Virus genome (UHGV): UHGV-0045429
DNA: 19,258 bases
Reading direction: 5' to 3' (one strand)
Source of the DNA: a virus
The notes under the pieces were generated by a model. It saw only the letters and a list, made by a program, of their open reading frames with translations. It was not told the DNA's origin and made no database searches. Below are positions 2,307-11,660 of this stretch, piece by piece (the stretch's first letter is position 1; the number at the start of each line of letters is the position of its first letter). The translations under genes were made by a program, and so were the position numbers.

Positions 2307-2534
2307 TCAAAAATCAGTAGTTGGTTTTGTCTTACGTTTTTGGCGCCGTTTTTTCTTCGGCTTGATGCTTGGTGGCATAACGAGCCGACGCGCTGGTGGC
2401 AGACTAAAAACATGCTCACTGATCTGTCTGCGTTCTCTCATTTTCCATACATGCCATGCCGTCCAGTCACACCCATCATCACAGATGTGCTGCGAGCGGA
2501 TCAGCGCTTCATCGCCGGTTAAATTCTCTGTCAC
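2307..2534 (-). CDS. Small hypothetical protein with Cys/His cluster and strongly basic C-terminus (KPKKKRRQKRKTKP)
   Basis: 75-aa ORF with a GTG start overlapping the stop of the upstream large ORF (GTGA coupling); sits between the RecE-like gene and xis. No family recognised. Confidence 0.35.
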   Translation of the reverse strand: MTENLTGDEALIRSQHICDDGCDWTAWHVWKMRERRQISEHVFSLPPARRLVMPPSIKPKKKRRQKRKTKPTTDF

Positions 2535-4399
2535 TGCTCCGCCTCCGCACTTATAACCCCAGCGGCCAGCGCAGCTGCCATGTGTGGCAATTCGTCAAAA
2601 TCACCTCGATATGCCGGGTTAGCGCACATCCCCTGCAGAGCCGCTAGCGTCAGCTGCTGGCGGTAGGTCAGGGTGGTAGACAGTTCACCATTGGTGACGT
2701 CGCTACCCGGTGAGGAAGCAGGCAATTCTGGTTTTTTCTTCGGTTTGGCTGTGACAACTGCTGGAGCTATCACTATCGGTTTTGGTGGCTCTGGTCGGCG
2801 ACATTCCACGATCGCATCGAGGGCGATTTTCTGACGCAAGGCAGCATCATCAGACCAGCCATCAAGAATTGTCGTTGCGACATCGTGAATTTCGTCATCG
2901 TTGAAATTAGGGGACAGACAAAATTCAGTGGTGGCGATATCGATGATCAGCAGAGGAAGAACGTCAGCGATAATATGACCGGTGCATGCCACAACGCCTT
3001 CCGCTTCTTCCTTACCCATAACGTCAGTACGTCCCGAAAGCAGGTCGTTCAGTGCGTGGGCAATCTCAATTTCATGATCATCCAGAAGTGGGCGACCGTC
3101 TTCCTGTTCGGTCACTTCCGTTTTTTCGCCCTCATTTGAGGCGCTATTGGCAAATGCTGCATCCAGTTCCCTGTTGAGCTCCGCAGCGCGAGACGGGCAG
3201 ACTGCCGGTATTTCAGTTCCGTTCTGTAATGTCTGTTCGGTTTGATCATTGAGGACCACCTCATTATTTTTTTGTGGCAGTGGGGCGGATGTACGGCCGC
3301 ATGCGATATCAACAATCAGTGGATCCGGATTTGCGTGATTTGACTCAGTCAGGTTTTTATTGATGTATTCGCGCAGTTTTACCGGATCGCGGTAGATATC
3401 CTCCGGAGAGGATTTAATTAGGGCAATAATTGCTGCGCGGGAAAAATCCAGAATACCGGGCGTGCGACGTAACTGTTTCCACCATGCAGTAAAGCGCTCA
3501 TCGGTTGCGGTTTCTTCCATTTTTTTGGCACGCTCATGAACGGCATGCGGCAGTTCGTAGATGTCGAAATCCATAGCAATACCCAGAATACCTATGCAGA
3601 CCTCGCGGCGCAGGGTTGCCAGCGTATGAGGTAGAACGCGATCGGTTGGGTTACCGCCGCCGAGCGTACAGCCTGATTCGGTGTGTGTGTCTTCACTGGT
3701 TTCAGGTTCGTCAGTTTTAAGTTTTACTGGCTCGCGTTTATCGGGCGGGGTCTCAGCCCATTGGGTAAACAGGTTTTTATAGTCTGGCCATTTAGCATTG
3801 TCGCGCGCCCTCTGACGCACCCAGGCCAGGCATTCGGTCTGTTTTTCAGGAAGCATGGCAAGAATGCGGGGTTCTTTGGCAAGACCCTCTGCCTGTTCGC
3901 GTAAAGGGCTAAATTCATCATCATTCAGCATGTCGATTAACTGGCCATACTGAGAAGGGGTGATTTCATCAATGACACCAAACACCGCGAGGCAGTATGA
4001 GCGGGCCAGCACATCCAGTTCTTTCACCGGTTTCATTTTTTCTTCTGTCGCGTCAGCATTGAGTTGTTCATTACCGCCAGCAAGCTCTGGCTCAACTATG
4101 ACGCGCTCTGGTTCACCTTTCTCCGCATTCCAGACAATTTCACCAGTGAAGAGGTCGGTATAGAACTGTCCCTCAACAGTGCAGAACATTCCTTCTTCTG
4201 TTTCCCAGACCTTGGGGGCGAAATAATCATCAGCATAATCTGGCGCGAACTGTATAAAGTCAGCATGCAGTAATGTCTTTGCAATTGTTTTATTTTTCGC
4301 TTGTTTAAAAGCAACATAAACCGGAAGTGTACTGTCTTTTTCAAGTGCACTTTTTTTCGGTTCGAATCTCCCGCCAAATTTTTTTAATCCAGTTGTCAT
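2531..4399 (-). CDS. Large acidic early-left protein resembling the N-terminal region of RecE (exonuclease VIII); no C-terminal nuclease domain recognisable
   Basis: Start taken at MTTGLKKFGG (ATG 4399, GAGG RBS 6 nt upstream). Segments GGGNPTDR...MDFDIYELPHAVHERAKKMEE and LREYINKNLTESNHANPDPLIVDIACGRTSAPLPQ match what I recall of the E. coli Rac RecE N-terminal region. No recT-like ORF follows. Confidence 0.6.
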   Translation of the reverse strand: MTTGLKKFGGRFEPKKSALEKDSTLPVYVAFKQAKNKTIAKTLLHADFIQFAPDYADDYFAPKVWETEEGMFCTVEGQFYTDLFTGEIVWNAEKGEPERVIVEPELAGGNEQLNADATEEKMKPVKELDVLARSYCLAVFGVIDEITPSQYGQLIDMLNDDEFSPLREQAEGLAKEPRILAMLPEKQTECLAWVRQRARDNAKWPDYKNLFTQWAETPPDKREPVKLKTDEPETSEDTHTESGCTLGGGNPTDRVLPHTLATLRREVCIGILGIAMDFDIYELPHAVHERAKKMEETATDERFTAWWKQLRRTPGILDFSRAAIIALIKSSPEDIYRDPVKLREYINKNLTESNHANPDPLIVDIACGRTSAPLPQKNNEVVLNDQTEQTLQNGTEIPAVCPSRAAELNRELDAAFANSASNEGEKTEVTEQEDGRPLLDDHEIEIAHALNDLLSGRTDVMGKEEAEGVVACTGHIIADVLPLLIIDIATTEFCLSPNFNDDEIHDVATTILDGWSDDAALRQKIALDAIVECRRPEPPKPIVIAPAVVTAKPKKKPELPASSPGSDVTNGELSTTLTYRQQLTLAALQGMCANPAYRGDFDELPHMAAALAAGVISAEAEQ

Positions 4400-4406
4400 A
4401 ATAACC

Positions 4407-4607
4407 TCAATAATGTTTATGTGAATGGCGTGCATTGCTTCTGCTTAAATTACAGCGCCGTGGTTCATGAATTTGTTTGTAGGAGATAGCATGCTCAAGG
4501 CTACAGAAATAAGCAGTCACTACTCTCTTATGAATTCTTTTTGTTGATTTATACATGGAATCATCAGAACTCCATTTTTTACAATACGGACAGCACTCAA
4601 GTGTCAC
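4407..4607 (-). CDS. Small Cys-rich ORF (possible zinc-binding protein); weakly supported
   Basis: 66-aa ORF with GTG start preceded by GGGAGGG; translation MTLECCPYCKKW... Position is analogous to the small ydaE/racC-type genes upstream of recE in Rac, but there is no sequence-level confirmation. Confidence 0.3.
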   Translation of the reverse strand: MTLECCPYCKKWSSDDSMYKSTKRIHKRVVTAYFCSLEHAISYKQIHEPRRCNLSRSNARHSHKHY

Positions 4608-4732: not shown

Positions 4733-4918
4733 TCAGCGTAAAAACTCGCTAATATTAACCCTCTGGTCGTTAACTATTTTGGTCATTACTTTGATGAAAC
4801 ACATATCCAGCACCGCCTCATCTTTATATTTTTGAACGCCGGTTATATCAGCCACAGCTTTTTTATATTCAGCTTCAGCTGTACGCTGGGCAATATCTTC
4901 GCTGGTAAATTTAACCAT
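4733..4918 (-). CDS. Hypothetical small early-left protein (61 aa)
   Basis: ATG at 4918 (MVKFTSEDIAQRTAEAEYKK...); 8-nt overlap with the upstream ORF suggests translational coupling. The track ORF from 4990 is probably an over-extension. Confidence 0.5.
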   Translation of the reverse strand: MVKFTSEDIAQRTAEAEYKKAVADITGVQKYKDEAVLDMCFIKVMTKIVNDQRVNISEFLR

Positions 4919-5105
4919 TGGCACGCACCATCCTGAGTAAAGATTCCGTGTGATCGAGAGCTGCCTTCTGTTGTTCGTACAGTGCCTCAAGTTCAGCTGT
5001 AAGGCGGTCGCGAAACGCAGGAACGCTTAACTGGTAAATAAAATTACTTACTGAGCTTTCCACATCAGGATCCCCGTCCGGTATAACTGGCTGTGAATTT
5101 TTCAT
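4911..5105 (-). CDS. Hypothetical small early-left protein (64 aa)
   Basis: ATG at 5105 (MKNSQPVIPDGDPD...) with a GGAGGG RBS immediately upstream; first ORF of the leftward operon. Confidence 0.55.
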   Translation of the reverse strand: MKNSQPVIPDGDPDVESSVSNFIYQLSVPAFRDRLTAELEALYEQQKAALDHTESLLRMVRANG

Positions 5106-5135
5106 AAACCCTCCGGTAAAAAGGTGCCCATCGTG

Positions 5136-5155
5136 GGAGATGGGCAAATACCACG
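5136..5155 (-). terminator. Terminator-like hairpin just upstream of the first early-left gene
   Basis: On the minus-strand transcript: GCCCATC-TCCCAC-GATGGGC followed by ACCTTTTTA (7-bp stem plus U-rich tail) immediately 5' of the RBS of the 64-aa ORF. Confidence 0.35.
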
Positions 5156-5182
5156 CGGCACACACTGCAATTAATCACATCT

Positions 5183-5246
5183 GCAAGCGCACTCCGCCTG
5201 TTTCACACCTGTCACCCATAACTGGTAAGTGAAGGAGTGCGCTTGC
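5183..5246. repeat. 13-bp perfect inverted repeat with 38-nt spacer inside the ORF-poor leader
   Basis: GCAAGCGCACTCC at 5183-5195 and its reverse complement GGAGTGCGCTTGC at 5234-5246; arms extend by a further 5 bp with a bulge. Confidence 0.5.
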
Positions 5247-5940
5247 ATGTTGTGTTCGCGGGGTCTACTTCCCTCCTGACACGGTTCTTTCCCCGCGTCA
5301 TCGTGTGTTCATTCGGTACATGAAACCCATTTGCCGGGATTCCACCGACTCCCATCTGTTTTTAAAGCCACTCAGATATCGTCTGGGCTTGCTCGTCTTT
5401 TCGAGCCGTCAGCGTTCTACTTCCCGCCGTCACTGCCGTGTTTACACAGTTGAACGTCTGCCGCTGTTCTCGGTGCTGGTACCGCCACTGTCCAGGACAT
5501 TTATAAGGGCCGTCTCCAAGTGGTAACTCTTCCAGTCCCGGTAAGAACCCTGCGAGATGCTTAGCGTGACTGGCTGTTATTCCCTGAAAAAGGCTGGCGG
5601 TTACCGGAAATACACGGGAAAACACCGGGCCGCCAAAACAGGGGGCTACTTGTTATTGCTTTGGCCTGCTTTTATCCACATCAGGCGCGGTGGTAGGTAT
5701 CTTCGGGCGGGGGCCAGTGACCAGCTGGCATCCCTACGGTACTTTTCACCGACAACCGCGGGTTAGACGGTTCCGTTTCGTCGGATAGAGCTGTCGATGC
5801 TGGTAGTCACTCCAGCCCGTAACCCCTCCCGAAGACACCTGTTTAGCGTTAAAACTTAAAATCTGTTTCCCCTTTATCGCCAGGGTAAGCGGAACAGTTT
5901 GATTCTGAGTAATCACTGCGTGTGGTTACTTGATGGAATA

Positions 5941-5996
5941 AACTTAGGTTAACTTAAGTTTTCAATCAAGATTTATTTTGTAGAAAAACCTAAGTT
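5941..5996. promoter_or_regulatory. Left operator-like region (OL analogue): inverted AACTTAGGTT / AACCTAAGTT half-sites downstream of the repressor gene
   Basis: AACTTAGGTT at 5941-5950 and its exact reverse complement AACCTAAGTT at 5987-5996. The 10-mer AAAACCTAAG (5985-5994) recurs exactly at 6521-6530 in the repressor/cro intergenic region. Confidence 0.45.
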
Positions 5997-6046
5997 TATG
6001 GGTGTAAAAACATAACTCATTGATTTTATGAGTTGAATATTTTGGT

Positions 6047-6463
6047 TTATTTTACTCGGGTTTTTCTTTTTCTCTTCTCTGCTTCTAGCAGTTCTTGCAG
6101 GCGGATGCTGTTGTTTTCGTTACGAGCGCGTAACTCTTCGAGGAAGCCGATCTGATCTGACTCGGGAAGTGAATCAAAGAGTTCTAATAACTCTAATTGA
6201 ATATCAGTTAATTCTCTTTGCTCTTCTAATGGTACCGGCGCGCCCGGAATCTGGGCCTCATCACCAAAAAGAAGCCATGCTGGCGCGCACTGCAGGCCTT
6301 TGCTAAGGGCGAACAACCTCTTTCCCGCCGGTTGAGTTTCATCGCGTTCCCACTGGGAAATAGTTACGTGTGCGACCTTTACCAGTTTGCCCAAGGCAGC
6401 CTGGGAAAGGTTTAGCTCTTTGCGTCGCCTTAAAAGACGAGTACCGAAGGTTTCTTTATCCAT
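6047..6463 (-). CDS. DicA/RacR-type prophage repressor (XRE-family HTH, no S24 peptidase domain)
   Basis: 138-aa ORF; N-terminal HTH (LNLSQAALGKLVKVAHVTISQWERDETQP), LFALSKGLQCAPAWLLFGDE and LELLELFDSLPESDQ closely parallel E. coli DicA as I recall it. No recognisable RBS before the ATG. Confidence 0.85.
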   Translation of the reverse strand: MDKETFGTRLLRRRKELNLSQAALGKLVKVAHVTISQWERDETQPAGKRLFALSKGLQCAPAWLLFGDEAQIPGAPVPLEEQRELTDIQLELLELFDSLPESDQIGFLEELRARNENNSIRLQELLEAEKRKRKTRVK

Positions 6464-6541: not shown

Positions 6542-6766
6542 GTGCTTAAAAAAGACGCAGTTATTTTTTTTGGAAGCAAATCAAAATTGGCAAAGGCTGC
6601 TGGTGTTGCTGCTTCATCAGTTTCTGTATGGGGCGACCTCGTGCCAGAGAAAAATGCGATGAGACTACAAATCGCTTCTGATGGTGCCCTGCGATATGAC
6701 CCCGAGGTCTATGACAAACATGCTAAAGCAAAACGGTCAGGAGAATTGAATGATGAAAATCAATGA
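6542..6766 (+). CDS. DicC/YdaS-like Cro-type regulator
   Basis: 74-aa ORF, GTG start with AAGGAG 8 nt upstream; MLKKDAVIFFGSKSKLAKAAG...GDLVPE...MRLQ...YDPEVYD closely matches E. coli DicC from memory; divergent from the repressor. Confidence 0.8.
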   Translation: MLKKDAVIFFGSKSKLAKAAGVAASSVSVWGDLVPEKNAMRLQIASDGALRYDPEVYDKHAKAKRSGELNDENQ

Positions 6767-7229
6767 GATCAAGTTACTGGCTATCGAGCTTGAAGAGTGG
6801 GCGATGAAGGATGGCAGGAAAGGGGGCTGGAAAAAGATTGTCCCACTGATTACCTCGCATCACTACGGTGATTTGCTGGATAGCCTGGCAGATATCGTGG
6901 ACCCGTCAGAGTATGTGCGCCGCCTGCATAACAACACGCAGATCATCCAGCGGGCATTTCGAAATGACACGCCGAACTATCGTGGTCAGGCAGCTGCGCT
7001 TGCGCCAGCAATCAGGGCTGCGATGGATGCAGAGCTGGCTGGTCAGCATGACTTACATAACCTGGTGGCCATTGCTAACCGCGAGTGCATCGAGGCGACC
7101 AGTGCGGTGCTGACTGGTAAGCCAATGCAGGTAATCCGCAAAGAAACGTCAGAGGCAATTCAGGCACTGGCCGATCTCATCCCCGGCGTCAGCATCCAGT
7201 TTAACCATATTGGTCCGCGCGCGGCGTAA
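6750..7229 (+). CDS. YdaT-like protein (third gene of the racR-ydaS-ydaT type immunity cluster)
   Basis: 159-aa ORF overlapping the DicC-like stop by 17 nt; AGGAG RBS; central NTQIIQRAFRNDTP...LAPAIRAAMD segment resembles the YdaT family as I recall it. Confidence 0.6.
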   Translation: MMKINEIKLLAIELEEWAMKDGRKGGWKKIVPLITSHHYGDLLDSLADIVDPSEYVRRLHNNTQIIQRAFRNDTPNYRGQAAALAPAIRAAMDAELAGQHDLHNLVAIANRECIEATSAVLTGKPMQVIRKETSEAIQALADLIPGVSIQFNHIGPRAA

Positions 7230-7241
7230 CAGGAGGCTCCC

Positions 7242-7484
7242 ATGCTTGCCCAGGAATTAGTAGACCGCATGAAAAATGCGATGAAGCACAAAGTACCGGC
7301 GGAGACAGTCGATCGCAGCGCTGAACTGATTCCGGGGATGAAATACCGCAACGAACGCGGACGCATGGTGACGGTAATGAGAGTTTCTCATCTTCGGGTT
7401 ATGTACCGATACGAAGGTTATCAGGACATCTGCGAGACAGGCCGGAGAGAGTTTGATTTGAAATTTAAGAAGGTGGAATTGTGA
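7242..7484 (+). CDS. Hypothetical phage protein (80 aa)
   Basis: ATG at 7242 with AGGAGG 5 nt upstream; tightly packed between the YdaT-like and HNH genes. Confidence 0.6.
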   Translation: MLAQELVDRMKNAMKHKVPAETVDRSAELIPGMKYRNERGRMVTVMRVSHLRVMYRYEGYQDICETGRREFDLKFKKVEL

Positions 7485-7486
7485 GT

Positions 7487-7840
7487 ATGAATTGCTGTGG
7501 CTGCCACAATCCTTTGGATGAGGACGAAATCTATAAACTTGCAGAGCGGTGCGGAATTTCGATCTGTGACCGTTGCGCGGGTAAGGTCGAACGCAGCTAT
7601 AACGAATGGCACGGTGGTCCTGGATATTTCCCCAAACCCCCTAAACACCCCCGCAAAAATATCTCACCGGGAGTGAGATTAAAAATTTATCGAAGGGATA
7701 AATACCGCTGTAAATATTGCGGCACCAGTGATGATCTCACCATTGATCATATTCAGCCTGTCTCTAAAGGCGGCGGAAATGAAGATGAAAATCTCCAGAC
7801 CTTATGTCGTGCCTGTAACCGCAGGAAGGGGGCGTCATGA
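7487..7840 (+). CDS. HNH endonuclease
   Basis: Cys-rich N-terminus plus H-N-H core ...DLTIDHIQPVSKGGGNEDENLQTLCRACNRRKG; ATG 7487 preferred over GTG 7481 because AGGTGGA lies 9 nt upstream. Confidence 0.8.
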   Translation: MNCCGCHNPLDEDEIYKLAERCGISICDRCAGKVERSYNEWHGGPGYFPKPPKHPRKNISPGVRLKIYRRDKYRCKYCGTSDDLTIDHIQPVSKGGGNEDENLQTLCRACNRRKGAS

Positions 7841-10968: not shown

Positions 10969-11607
10969 ATGGGTGGCATTTTCGATGAATCATGGTCTGA
11001 GCAATTTACTCAACGCGTTGAGGCTTTGCGTAAACTGGATGATCAGTCCGTTACTCAACCGCTTTTCAGAGAAAAAGCGGATCTGATTTTTACTCAAATG
11101 GCTGACCGTGTTCGTTCGCGTACGCGACAGCAGCTCGGAGAAATCGACGTTAGCGGGATAACATTTGATTACGCAATCCGCTATTACGTTAATCACGACA
11201 CTGGTGATCCGGTTCTGGATCACCTTGTGTCCAGGGTAGGGCCATTCTGTGACCAGATGAAGATCAGCACGGAGGCGTACGGCACAGCGGCGTTCTGCTG
11301 CGCGCTCATGATGTTGAAAGGCGAGTTGCGTATAGCGTATGCATTTTTCAGCATGCTGATGCGCCCGCTCGTTTCTGCGTACAGGTATAACACCGACGCG
11401 AAACGACGTGGCTCTGCTGGTGGGCGCCCGACAAATCCACTTAAAAACGAGGCACTGGAACTGGCGCGGGTATTTACAAAATCCTATCCTGATTCAACGA
11501 TGGTGGCTGTTGTTAACGCCGTCATTTCTGACCTTGAATCTCACTACGTTGGCACTCCGTCAGCACGCACAATAAAGCGCTGGATTCAGCAGGACCGGAA
11601 AAAATAA
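10969..11607 (+). CDS. Hypothetical protein with C-terminal resolvase-type HTH-like segment (putative DNA-binding regulator)
   Basis: ATG 10969 (GAGG RBS; the track start at 10957 is a TTG). C-terminal GGRPTNPLKNEALELARVF...TPSARTIKRWIQQ resembles the GRP-led HTH of serine recombinases, but no recombinase catalytic domain is present. Confidence 0.55.
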   Translation: MGGIFDESWSEQFTQRVEALRKLDDQSVTQPLFREKADLIFTQMADRVRSRTRQQLGEIDVSGITFDYAIRYYVNHDTGDPVLDHLVSRVGPFCDQMKISTEAYGTAAFCCALMMLKGELRIAYAFFSMLMRPLVSAYRYNTDAKRRGSAGGRPTNPLKNEALELARVFTKSYPDSTMVAVVNAVISDLESHYVGTPSARTIKRWIQQDRKK

Positions 11608-11614
11608 CCCCTCC

Positions 11615-11660
11615 GGACAAAACCTTCTTTTGTCGGCATAACCTGGTTTTGTCCGTTTTA
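11615..11660 (+). terminator. Terminator-like hairpin: GGACAAAACC ... GGTTTTGTCC followed by GTTTTATC
   Basis: 10-bp perfect inverted repeat (11615-11624 / 11645-11654) downstream of the 212-aa ORF. Confidence 0.5.

Follow-up and report, generated by a model that had tools for sequence, protein, structure and literature searches.

Conserved RNA structures in the gene-free early-left leader of virus genome UHGV-0045429, a proposed array of exchangeable cassettes

The window analysed here is a stretch of 19,258 nucleotides (nt) of the virus genome UHGV-0045429, and our subject is its early-left leader, the DNA of about 830 base pairs (bp) at positions 5106-5940 that separates the likely early leftward promoter PL, next to a repressor-like gene, from the first early-left gene (Table 1). 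The window is 100% identical to its own source locus, prophage L217 on contig CABJAD010000001.1 (about 561-567 kb) of assembly GCA_902363475.1. The leader DNA is non-coding, and two of its parts, a short core motif and a larger module that we call D, are conserved RNA structures. The fold of the 851-nt transcript of the minus strand is far more stable than those of shuffled sequences (z = -5.8); the plus strand also folds well (z = -4.3), as is expected from hairpin-rich DNA. A first-pass annotation had described the stretch as structured, poor in open reading frames (ORFs) and normal in base composition. The first two points are borne out, the third is not: the G+C content of the leader is 51-55% vs 36-47% in its flanks.

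The leader resembles no catalogued RNA. Rfam 15 gave no match at gathering thresholds in the whole window, and at a permissive E value the region 4800-6200 returned chance-level matches only, the top one being RprA (32.4 bits vs a cut-off of 70, driven by the terminator). In 20 related loci, the gathering thresholds were passed by transfer RNA (tRNA), C4 and isrK only, all at other places in these loci. No tRNA was found in the window by ARAGORN at default settings or by the model RF00005, nor any transfer-messenger RNA (tmRNA) by ARAGORN; relaxed settings yielded calls that were rejected as artefacts, among them tRNAs on the wrong strand, one tRNA interrupted by an 'intron' of 590 nt and a 'permuted tmRNA'. 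A literature search by sequence string and by topic did not find a prior description of the core or of module D.

Table 1. Features of the early-left leader and its surroundings, in window positions
Feature	Position	Strand	Description
P22_Cro-type gene	6542..6766	plus	
Repressor-like gene	6047..6463	minus	138 amino acids, helix-turn-helix; Pfam HTH_3; PHROGs repressor families
Operator-like inverted repeats (I3/I9) and direct repeat D8	5938..5999		context of leader
Likely PL promoter	5969..5941	minus	TTGATT-17-TAAGTT; assigned by eye, sub-threshold in promoter scan
Module D	5695..5840	minus	multi-helix RNA of ~150 nt
D helix P1 (closing)	5823-5840 with 5695-5712		
D helix P2	5799-5816		
D helices P3/P4	5749-5784		
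D helix P6	5713-5729		
Matched segment	5695-5848		ST64B, an E. coli prophage
Module C	5574..5694	minus	hairpin GCCUGAUGUGGAUAAAAGCAGGC at 5664-5686
Matched segment	5574-5695		E. coli Nissle prophages; phages Eeyore, Flotzy, LLS
Module B2	5430..5580	minus	hairpin 5532-5573
Matched segment	5460-5580		mEp390, Kp4865-1, PAT1
P0a and P0b	5391..5427	minus	small hairpins upstream of core (P0a 5412-5427, P0b 5391-5406); GAAG/AAAAGA-type loops
Core motif	5324..5392	minus	62-69 nt, two hairpins
Matched segment	5332-5411		many phages
Core hairpin 1	5366-5389		4+4 bp, 5-nt loop CGAUA, 3-nt bulge; outer AGYC/GRCU, inner CAGA/UCUG
Core linker	5350-5365		UUWAAAAACAGAUGG, invariant
Core hairpin 2	5333-5349		5-bp stem, 7-nt loop UGGAAKC, invariant G:C closing pair
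Insert hairpin	5258..5296	minus	in the ~70-90-nt insert that parts core from long hairpin
Long hairpin	5176..5254	minus	class with CACAAC...GUUGUG base helix; here 3' half GAUGUG
Matched segment	5176-5290		mEp390, Kp4865-1
Terminator module T	5117..5175	minus	A/U-rich linker 5147-5175, stem-loop 5125-5146, U-run 5118-5122
First early-left gene	4911..5115	minus	64 amino acids, ATG 5105; position includes ribosome-binding site GGAGGG 5110-5115

The core is the most conserved motif of the leader. By BLAST, a 60-nt segment of it is 83-97% identical in 104 phage records; among the carriers are N4 and its like from Escherichia, Klebsiella and Shigella, as well as Salmonella phage 9NA, Shigella phage DS8 and Klebsiella phage SopranoGao. 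A scan with the exact pattern located it in at least 120 loci of IMG/VR and in six GTDB species genomes, all of Enterobacterales. The alignment of the 72 unique sequences is gap-free; the search pattern itself imposes part of the invariance that linker and inner stem show in this set. In this alignment 90% of the cells are paired vs 16-39% in slid controls, and 48 cells are changed on both sides of a pair vs 8.9 in shuffles, none of 500 shuffles reaching the observed value. The changes affect column pairs 6:25 (CG 54, UA 15, GC 1), 44:60 (GC 61, CG 6, AU 3), 45:59 (CG 52, UG 13, UA 6), 46:58 (CG 61, AU 7, UA 3) and 47:57 (GC 63, AU 7) of alignment A4, and the stem of the preceding P0 hairpins likewise covaries among loci in alignment A3 (GCCGG/CGGC, GCUCG/CGAGC, GCCUG/CAGGC). 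A covariance model (R1) scores 91 bits on the single copy in the window, 73 bits in N4 and 71 bits in 9NA; the last two copies had been missed by the pattern and were recovered by the model, and that of 9NA keeps both hairpins through compensatory changes. The core is a conserved structured RNA whose pairs are maintained by compensatory changes.

In its geometry, hairpin 2 of the core is a T-arm like that of a tRNA; ACACAAC follows it in most loci. A complete cloverleaf built from P0, hairpin 1 and hairpin 2 fails because the acceptor pairing is absent. For an alternative AUCUG/CAGAU pairing within the core, the main set is uninformative as to covariation, and the 9NA variant breaks the pairing. 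We also dropped the M3 RNA of phage phi80, an RNase P substrate of about 62 nt, as an identity for the core: there was no match in the 26-36 kb section of phi80, the part of that genome that was searched, and phi80 is absent from the BLAST matches listed for the core.

Module D was collected with a pattern from its 5' strand in 72 viral loci, corresponding to 50 unique sequences of four length classes, 43 of which were aligned. It folds with z = -4.4, and its junction strands (GGGGUU.CGG, UAACCC and ACCGUAGGG) are invariant in the family. The 17-bp closing stem P1 is almost invariant and 98.8% paired, and the compensatory changes are carried by P2 (pair 30:45, CG 36, UA 7), P4 (pair 74:90, GC 24, AU 12, CG 7; pair 76:88, CG 39, AU 4) and P6, where four of five pairs are compensatory. 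By eye, P3 also alternates between CCGAC/GUCGG and CCUGGUG/CACCAG among types; MAFFT shifts it by one column. Overall, 89.6% of the cells are paired vs 37-49% in slid controls, and 69 are changed on both sides vs 25.3 in the control. Module D, like the core, is a conserved structured RNA. A loop-loop contact between its UGAC and GUCA sequences, which are invariant, is possible.

D also keeps to one position. In 61 of the 67 loci with sufficient upstream sequence, a same-strand cI/LexA-type repressor gene precedes it at a median distance of 196 nt, and where a good sigma-70 promoter is recognisable (14 loci), the end of the -10 element lies 80-87 nt before D in nine. Among phages, BLAST matched the D segment only in ST64B and in a small number of further Salmonella phages (As1, S.Typ Adana). 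The P2 helix of ST64B-type D (for instance L002, 2500-2654) reads GACCACCAGC, which includes the complementary sequence of the Chi site of E. coli, GCTGGTGG; the window type carries CTACCAGC in its place. This may be relevant to the Chi-rich group of LLS- and ST64B-like phages (PMC12315714). Locus L195 holds two truncated copies of the 5' third of D, 230 nt apart (3325-3376 and 3555-3628), each of which runs into unrelated sequence, in one case followed by a strong terminator-like hairpin, GGCCACCATTATGGTGGCTTTTTTTTTT.

These compensatory changes bear on the suggestion, made in the first-pass annotation, that the leader hides a sub-threshold N-like peptide or the remains of decayed or frameshifted genes. 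Between the repressor-like gene and the first early-left gene, the transcribed strand holds an 87-codon ORF (5362..5625) at most and a second one of 56 codons (5746..5916), and some deposited phage annotations call tiny ORFs in homologous DNA. The longer ORF traverses the core, both overlap RNA helices with compensatory changes, and in the closest homologues the 87-codon frame stays open for no more than 15 codons, with stops at differing positions among loci. No leader ORF and neither of the first two early-left genes has a Pfam or PHROGs match, in agreement with the earlier remark that no N gene is apparent, and no arginine-rich N-terminal motif was seen. We therefore regard a hidden or decayed gene, contradicted by the base changes and by the non-conserved frames, as extremely improbable. 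In the deposited annotations of phages KpF5 (L003), Eeyore (L008), mEp390 (L001) and SopranoGao (L005), 'hypothetical proteins' of 30-80 amino acids overlie conserved RNA cassettes, such as SopranoGao_1 on the core and mEp390_036 on module B2 and adjoining leader DNA; these are probably spurious.

Comparison with phage and E. coli genomes by BLAST revealed that separate segments of the leader, and never the whole of it, match unannotated gaps elsewhere (Table 1). The lambdoid matches have the same orientation and the same place, from the repressor gene to the first leftward gene, and gene-free leaders of 630-820 nt are also found in ST64B, mEp390 and LLS. Module C is 94% identical to unannotated leader DNA of E. 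coli Nissle prophages and 89% identical to the start of the LLS leader. For module B2, segments with 85-94% identity lie in the leaders of mEp390, Kp4865-1 and PAT1 and in those of several viral contigs. LLS combines module C, a long hairpin, another domain described below and a related terminator, with neither D nor the core, and in five loci D and the terminator are present and the core is missing.

Three prophages of other assemblies (L215, L216 and L218) encode a repressor identical to that of the window. Their PL regions are 94-97% identical to that of the window over 6050-5870, and the succession of core, long hairpin, terminator and first gene is kept at 94-98% identity; the 64-residue product of that gene is called in all four prophages, L215-L218. 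Their leaders, of 1337-1542 nt, lack D. In L215 and L218 it is replaced by A+T-rich DNA that opens with an opposite-strand terminator-like sequence, and in L216 by a 75-nt segment (3593-3668, …ACCGGACGCUCACGAAGUAUCCGUCGGUGGCGUAUUAAUAACCGGAUGAUUCGCU) followed by a coding insert. The same 75-nt segment occurs in 59 other loci, including ST64B, Nissle and C3728, and directly precedes D in ST64B and the C3728 prophage; the window has a different sequence between PL and D. Leaders without D, without the core or without both retain the terminator, therefore no single cassette always accompanies it. The comparison of these genomes indicates that cassettes are gained, lost and swapped between phages sharing one immunity region.

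The core is also found in settings that have no relation to a PL operon. In N4, it lies inside a cluster of four tRNA genes, in the 1.5-kb gap between gp47 and gp48, and in three N4-like contigs (L063, L076 and L046) it starts 1-3 nt past the 3' end of a tRNA. Same-strand tRNAs occur within 1.2 kb of the core in 19 of 126 loci. The closest collinear relatives of positions 5176-5590 (L121, L036, L062, L074, L032 and L039) are about 83% identical over 385-415 nt, and in all of these except L032, as well as in L043, a tRNA-Arg(UCU) gene begins exactly 200 nt after the motif. It directly follows the long hairpin, whose 3' half-site GUUGUG overlaps the first three bases of the tRNA; in the window, the terminator module and not a tRNA comes after the long hairpin. 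In relatives, such arrays are associated with tRNAs. In DS8, the array occupies an 840-bp gap, is antisense to both neighbouring genes and has a promoter of its own (TTGACA-17-TAGATT), and arrays end in an intrinsic-terminator-like hairpin in three lineages (window type, tRNA-Arg type and LLS). An own promoter and terminal hairpins are the behaviour of RNA genes and not of a 5' untranslated region serving a downstream gene.

Further tRNA-like and conserved sequences were noticed around these arrays. Directly after the core in L063 (~11550-11620), L004 (~1565-1635) and L076 there is a tRNA-like minihelix, not called by ARAGORN, with a 7-bp acceptor stem (UUCCGGU/GCCGGAA) and CCA; acceptor stem and T-arm, the latter canonical (UCUGG-UUCGAGU-CCAGA), are separated by a single short hairpin. 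L103 (~7330-7470) contains, between two long hairpins and upstream of tRNA-Arg, a tRNA-like sequence with D-arm, T-arm and acceptor (UGUGUUG/CAGCACA), likewise uncalled, which has a non-canonical anticodon loop (UGAAGGA) and an insert of about 75 nt. A conserved non-coding sequence, AAGACCAUACAAC.CGCGCAAUAAUCUUAACCGUAG…GGGUUAAC…, precedes the core in EC1-UPM (L004, ~1380-1490) and DS8 (L013, ~1880-1990); the AAGACCAUACAAC.CGCGCAAUAAUCUUAACCGUAG segment is a further cassette, shared by an N4-like podovirus and a T1-like siphovirus.

The borders of the cassettes are themselves recognisable. The long hairpin of the window folds with z = -4.1, and its upper stem is the perfect inverted repeat reported in the first-pass annotation, which is real and measures 14 nt at 5182-5195/5234-5247 (100% complementary), not 13 bp at 5183-5246. 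The core and the long hairpin are adjacent in most loci; the insert that parts them in the window is common to the group of L036, L043, L062 and L121. When 110 unique flanks downstream of the core were searched for CA[CT]AAC followed within 38-176 nt by GTT[GA]TG, both half-sites were present in 73, of which 69 fold into a closed hairpin. The class comprises 28 distinct interiors on a conserved base, with a median z of -3.1. In LLS and SopranoGao, the reversed half-sites GUUGUGG...CCACAAC enclose another domain of about 190 nt. Since the half-sites occur in both orders, the cassettes are bounded by short complementary sequences able to pair with either neighbour.

Inverted half-sites at the borders, together with the shuffling of 60-nt segments that are 90-97% identical in otherwise unrelated virulent and temperate phages, could also mean that selection acts on the DNA, the cassettes and their CACAAC/GTTGTG borders being recombination junctions or small mobile elements and the RNA folds incidental. 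We find this very unlikely. Some of the compensatory changes pass through G-U intermediates, a strand-specific feature that points to RNA; with the exception of DS8, the orientation of the cassettes follows the flanking genes in the annotated loci that were checked; the abutment to tRNA genes is precise; and no transposase or integrase is associated with the arrays.

The leader of the window ends in a hairpin satisfying, by its sequence, the description of an intrinsic terminator, namely a G+C-rich hairpin and a U-run on the transcribed strand. The stem at 5146..5125 has 8 bp, five of them G-C, and a 6-nt loop, and is followed by CC-UUUUU, the ribosome-binding site and the start codon of the first early-left gene, the hairpin sitting 10-20 nt before the ribosome-binding site. 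The first-pass annotation was thus correct to see a terminator-like hairpin with a U-tail immediately upstream of this gene, and its coordinates, 5136-5155, were off by about 10 nt. The module and its flanks are kept nearly base for base in five other loci (L154, L173, L193, L194 and L205), and a diverged version is present in LLS. A second terminator-like hairpin (TTAGCGAG TTTTTACG CTGA, then a T-run) lies on the minus strand at 4733-4752, directly after the second small early-left ORF (4733..4921); therefore at least two terminator-like sites punctuate the early-left operon within 1.2 kb of PL.

A terminator directly before a ribosome-binding site and downstream of a highly structured RNA is reminiscent of a cis-regulatory attenuator, in which the leader or its last 130 nt would sense a metabolite, a protein, a tRNA or temperature and switch between terminator and anti-terminator folds. 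Module D, with its invariant junction nucleotides and covarying stems, is riboswitch-like in these features. However, no convincing pairing that would compete with the terminator stem was found, the leader has no Rfam riboswitch match, the modules upstream of the terminator differ among phages sharing it, and the cassettes also occur without any downstream terminator or gene. A sensing attenuator of this kind thus appears quite unlikely.

The first-pass annotation had also raised the possibility that the missing N gene is replaced by an RNA element. The putL and putR sequences of phage HK022 are processive antiterminator RNAs (PMC9378689). Phage LLS has no N homologue, and the authors who described it have suggested that N-less relatives of ST64B and LLS may use a mechanism of the put type (PMC12315714). 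Applied to the window, the leader RNA, with D as the best candidate, would bind the elongating host RNA polymerase and let it pass the hairpins at 5125-5146 and 4733-4752 as well as later terminators. Consistent with this are the absence of an N homologue and of any boxA-like match in 5106-5940 (boxB was not searched separately), the two terminator-like hairpins near PL, and the promoter-proximal position of D, which lies some 70-105 nt into the PL transcript. However, putL and putR as read from the HK022 genome bear no likeness in sequence or structure to D or the core; in the HK022 loci, model R1 gave one chance-level match (L134, 10.6 bits, E = 0.43) and the D profile none. Nor is there a second copy of the put type: the window has a single core and a single D, with no non-coding gap after the cro-like gene where an element of the rightward promoter PR would be expected. 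L215, L216 and L218 share repressor, PL region, terminator and first gene with the window in the absence of D, therefore D is not required for read-through there, and LLS itself lacks D. A terminator-like site between D and the first long ORF is absent in 51 of 60 D loci, by a test that is crude because spurious ORFs interfere. Finally, the core occurs in the N4 tRNA cluster and in the independent antisense unit of DS8, so it is not tied to the PL operon and is not such an element in general. These observations speak against the put-like reading, which we judge unlikely.

We propose instead that the leader, placed between PL and the first early-left gene, consists of structured-RNA cassettes that are independent of one another, exchangeable and transcribed together as an array, an interpretation that is on balance probable. 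On this view, it is of the same kind as the arrays in and around the tRNA gene clusters of other enterobacterial phages. Several observations weigh against the proposal. The window has no tRNA, and the link to tRNAs comes from its relatives only. Modules C and B2 together (~270 nt, 5430-5694) have folds of little stability (z ~0 to 0.9, with 0.1 for C alone), and few compensatory or wobble changes were seen among seven homologues. Taken alone, the terminator pattern scan is at chance level (three sites vs 2.5 expected). Lastly, D is absent from virulent phages and always PL-proximal, which suits a cis-regulatory role better than that of a cassette like the others.

How such an array might work can be outlined as follows. 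PL would transcribe the array early after induction. Border helices (CACAAC/GUUGUG) and tRNA-like features could direct cleavage by host enzymes of tRNA and rRNA processing (RNases P, E and III) and yield stable small RNAs, a prediction made from the architecture. The tRNA-like features are the T-arm shape of hairpin 2 and, in N4-like phages, the way in which the core exactly abuts tRNA ends. Most transcripts would stop at the terminator, so that the array RNAs would be in excess and the early-left genes would be expressed by read-through only; the terminator would then act as an attenuator. For the 62-nt core, which is nearly invariant, the most likely role is the binding of a conserved host factor recognising tRNA-like shapes, and D, tied to its promoter-proximal position, is more likely a cis-acting leader element on the PL transcript.

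A bolder version of this scheme is tentative, and we give it a low chance of being right: the core would be a new class of phage small RNA cut by host tRNA-processing enzymes from tRNA-type precursors, a partial tRNA mimic that binds, titrates or misdirects a conserved, tRNA-recognising factor of enterobacteria, and D, separately, would be a regulatory RNA of a new, promoter-proximal kind in lambdoid phages that lack N. Mimicry would be achieved through the T-arm-shaped hairpin and the invariant A-rich linker, and candidate targets would include enzymes that process or modify tRNA as well as defence nucleases that attack it. Such mimicry would explain the near-invariance of the core across N4-like, 9NA-like, T1-like and lambdoid phages.

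Outside the leader, the ORF at 7481-7840 (plus strand, 119 amino acids) encodes an HNH endonuclease; among the four identical-repressor prophages it occupies this spot only in L217, the source of the window, and is missing from L215, L216 and L218, and it therefore looks like a recent mobile insertion. According to Pfam searches of the identical locus L217, the gene after the cro-like gene (6750-7229, plus strand) has a YdaT_toxin domain (PF06254), and the large early-left ORF at 2531-4435 (minus strand, 634 amino acids) has YdfE_N and YdfE_C domains.

The leader thus contains two conserved, covarying RNA structures that Rfam 15 does not list and that carry no annotation in the phage records examined. 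One of the two, the core, is shared by N4, a classic phage, and by about a hundred enterobacterial phages that have been sequenced. Both structures show that the 'empty' gaps in the early operons and tRNA clusters of phages are home to a common stock of RNA cassettes that can be exchanged. They also provide testable candidates for the control of the early-left operon in N-less lambdoid phages of the ST64B/LLS type and raise the possibility of phage RNAs acting on host tRNA biology.

Several known systems invite comparison. Like lambda nutL and N, the array lies between PL and the early-left genes, upstream of terminators; unlike them, it has no N-like ORF, no boxA and no family match. The put elements of HK022 promote read-through of terminators via the beta' zinc-binding domain of the host RNA polymerase. 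As with put, the PL transcript of a lambdoid phage without N here includes an RNA element; put has about 70 nt, two stem-loops and conserved bulges, the core has about 62 nt and two stem-loops, and D is promoter-proximal as putL is. In contrast to put, D has 150 nt and five helices or more, the core is located some 550 nt downstream of PL and is also present in virulent phages, there is no sequence similarity and no PR copy, and D is dispensable in relatives with the same promoter and terminator. The immunity RNAs of P4 (CI RNA) and of P1/P7 (C4 antisense RNA, RF01695) are processed by RNase P from an operon leader. The core would likewise be a leader-derived, tRNA-like-shaped phage RNA released by tRNA-processing enzymes; in contrast to these RNAs, the C4 model has no match in the window (it matches elsewhere in ST64B), and complementary target sites were not found.

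In lambda, the early-left operon gives rise to the Hfq-dependent small RNA PreS/LPR1, which is carved from the PL transcript and has its 3' end at the intrinsic terminator tL2a (bioRxiv 10.1101/2024.10.31.621285). The last 140 nt or so of the present leader (long hairpin, A/U-rich linker, terminator and U-run) appear, by analogy, to be laid out as an Hfq-type small RNA, and PreS has the same layout; this stretch also gives the sub-threshold RprA-like match mentioned above, although there is no sequence similarity and the terminator here precedes the first gene, whereas that of PreS lies between genes.

A further parallel in kind may be drawn with phage T4. Its species 1 and 2 RNAs (rnaC/rnaD) are stable non-tRNA RNAs encoded in the phage tRNA cluster. 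The array of the window differs in lying in a prophage PL leader that has no tRNA, and a relationship by sequence is not expected. The common ground is that of small structured RNAs co-transcribed with phage tRNAs and delimited by tRNA ends, and in N4-like phages the core fills just such a tRNA spacer.

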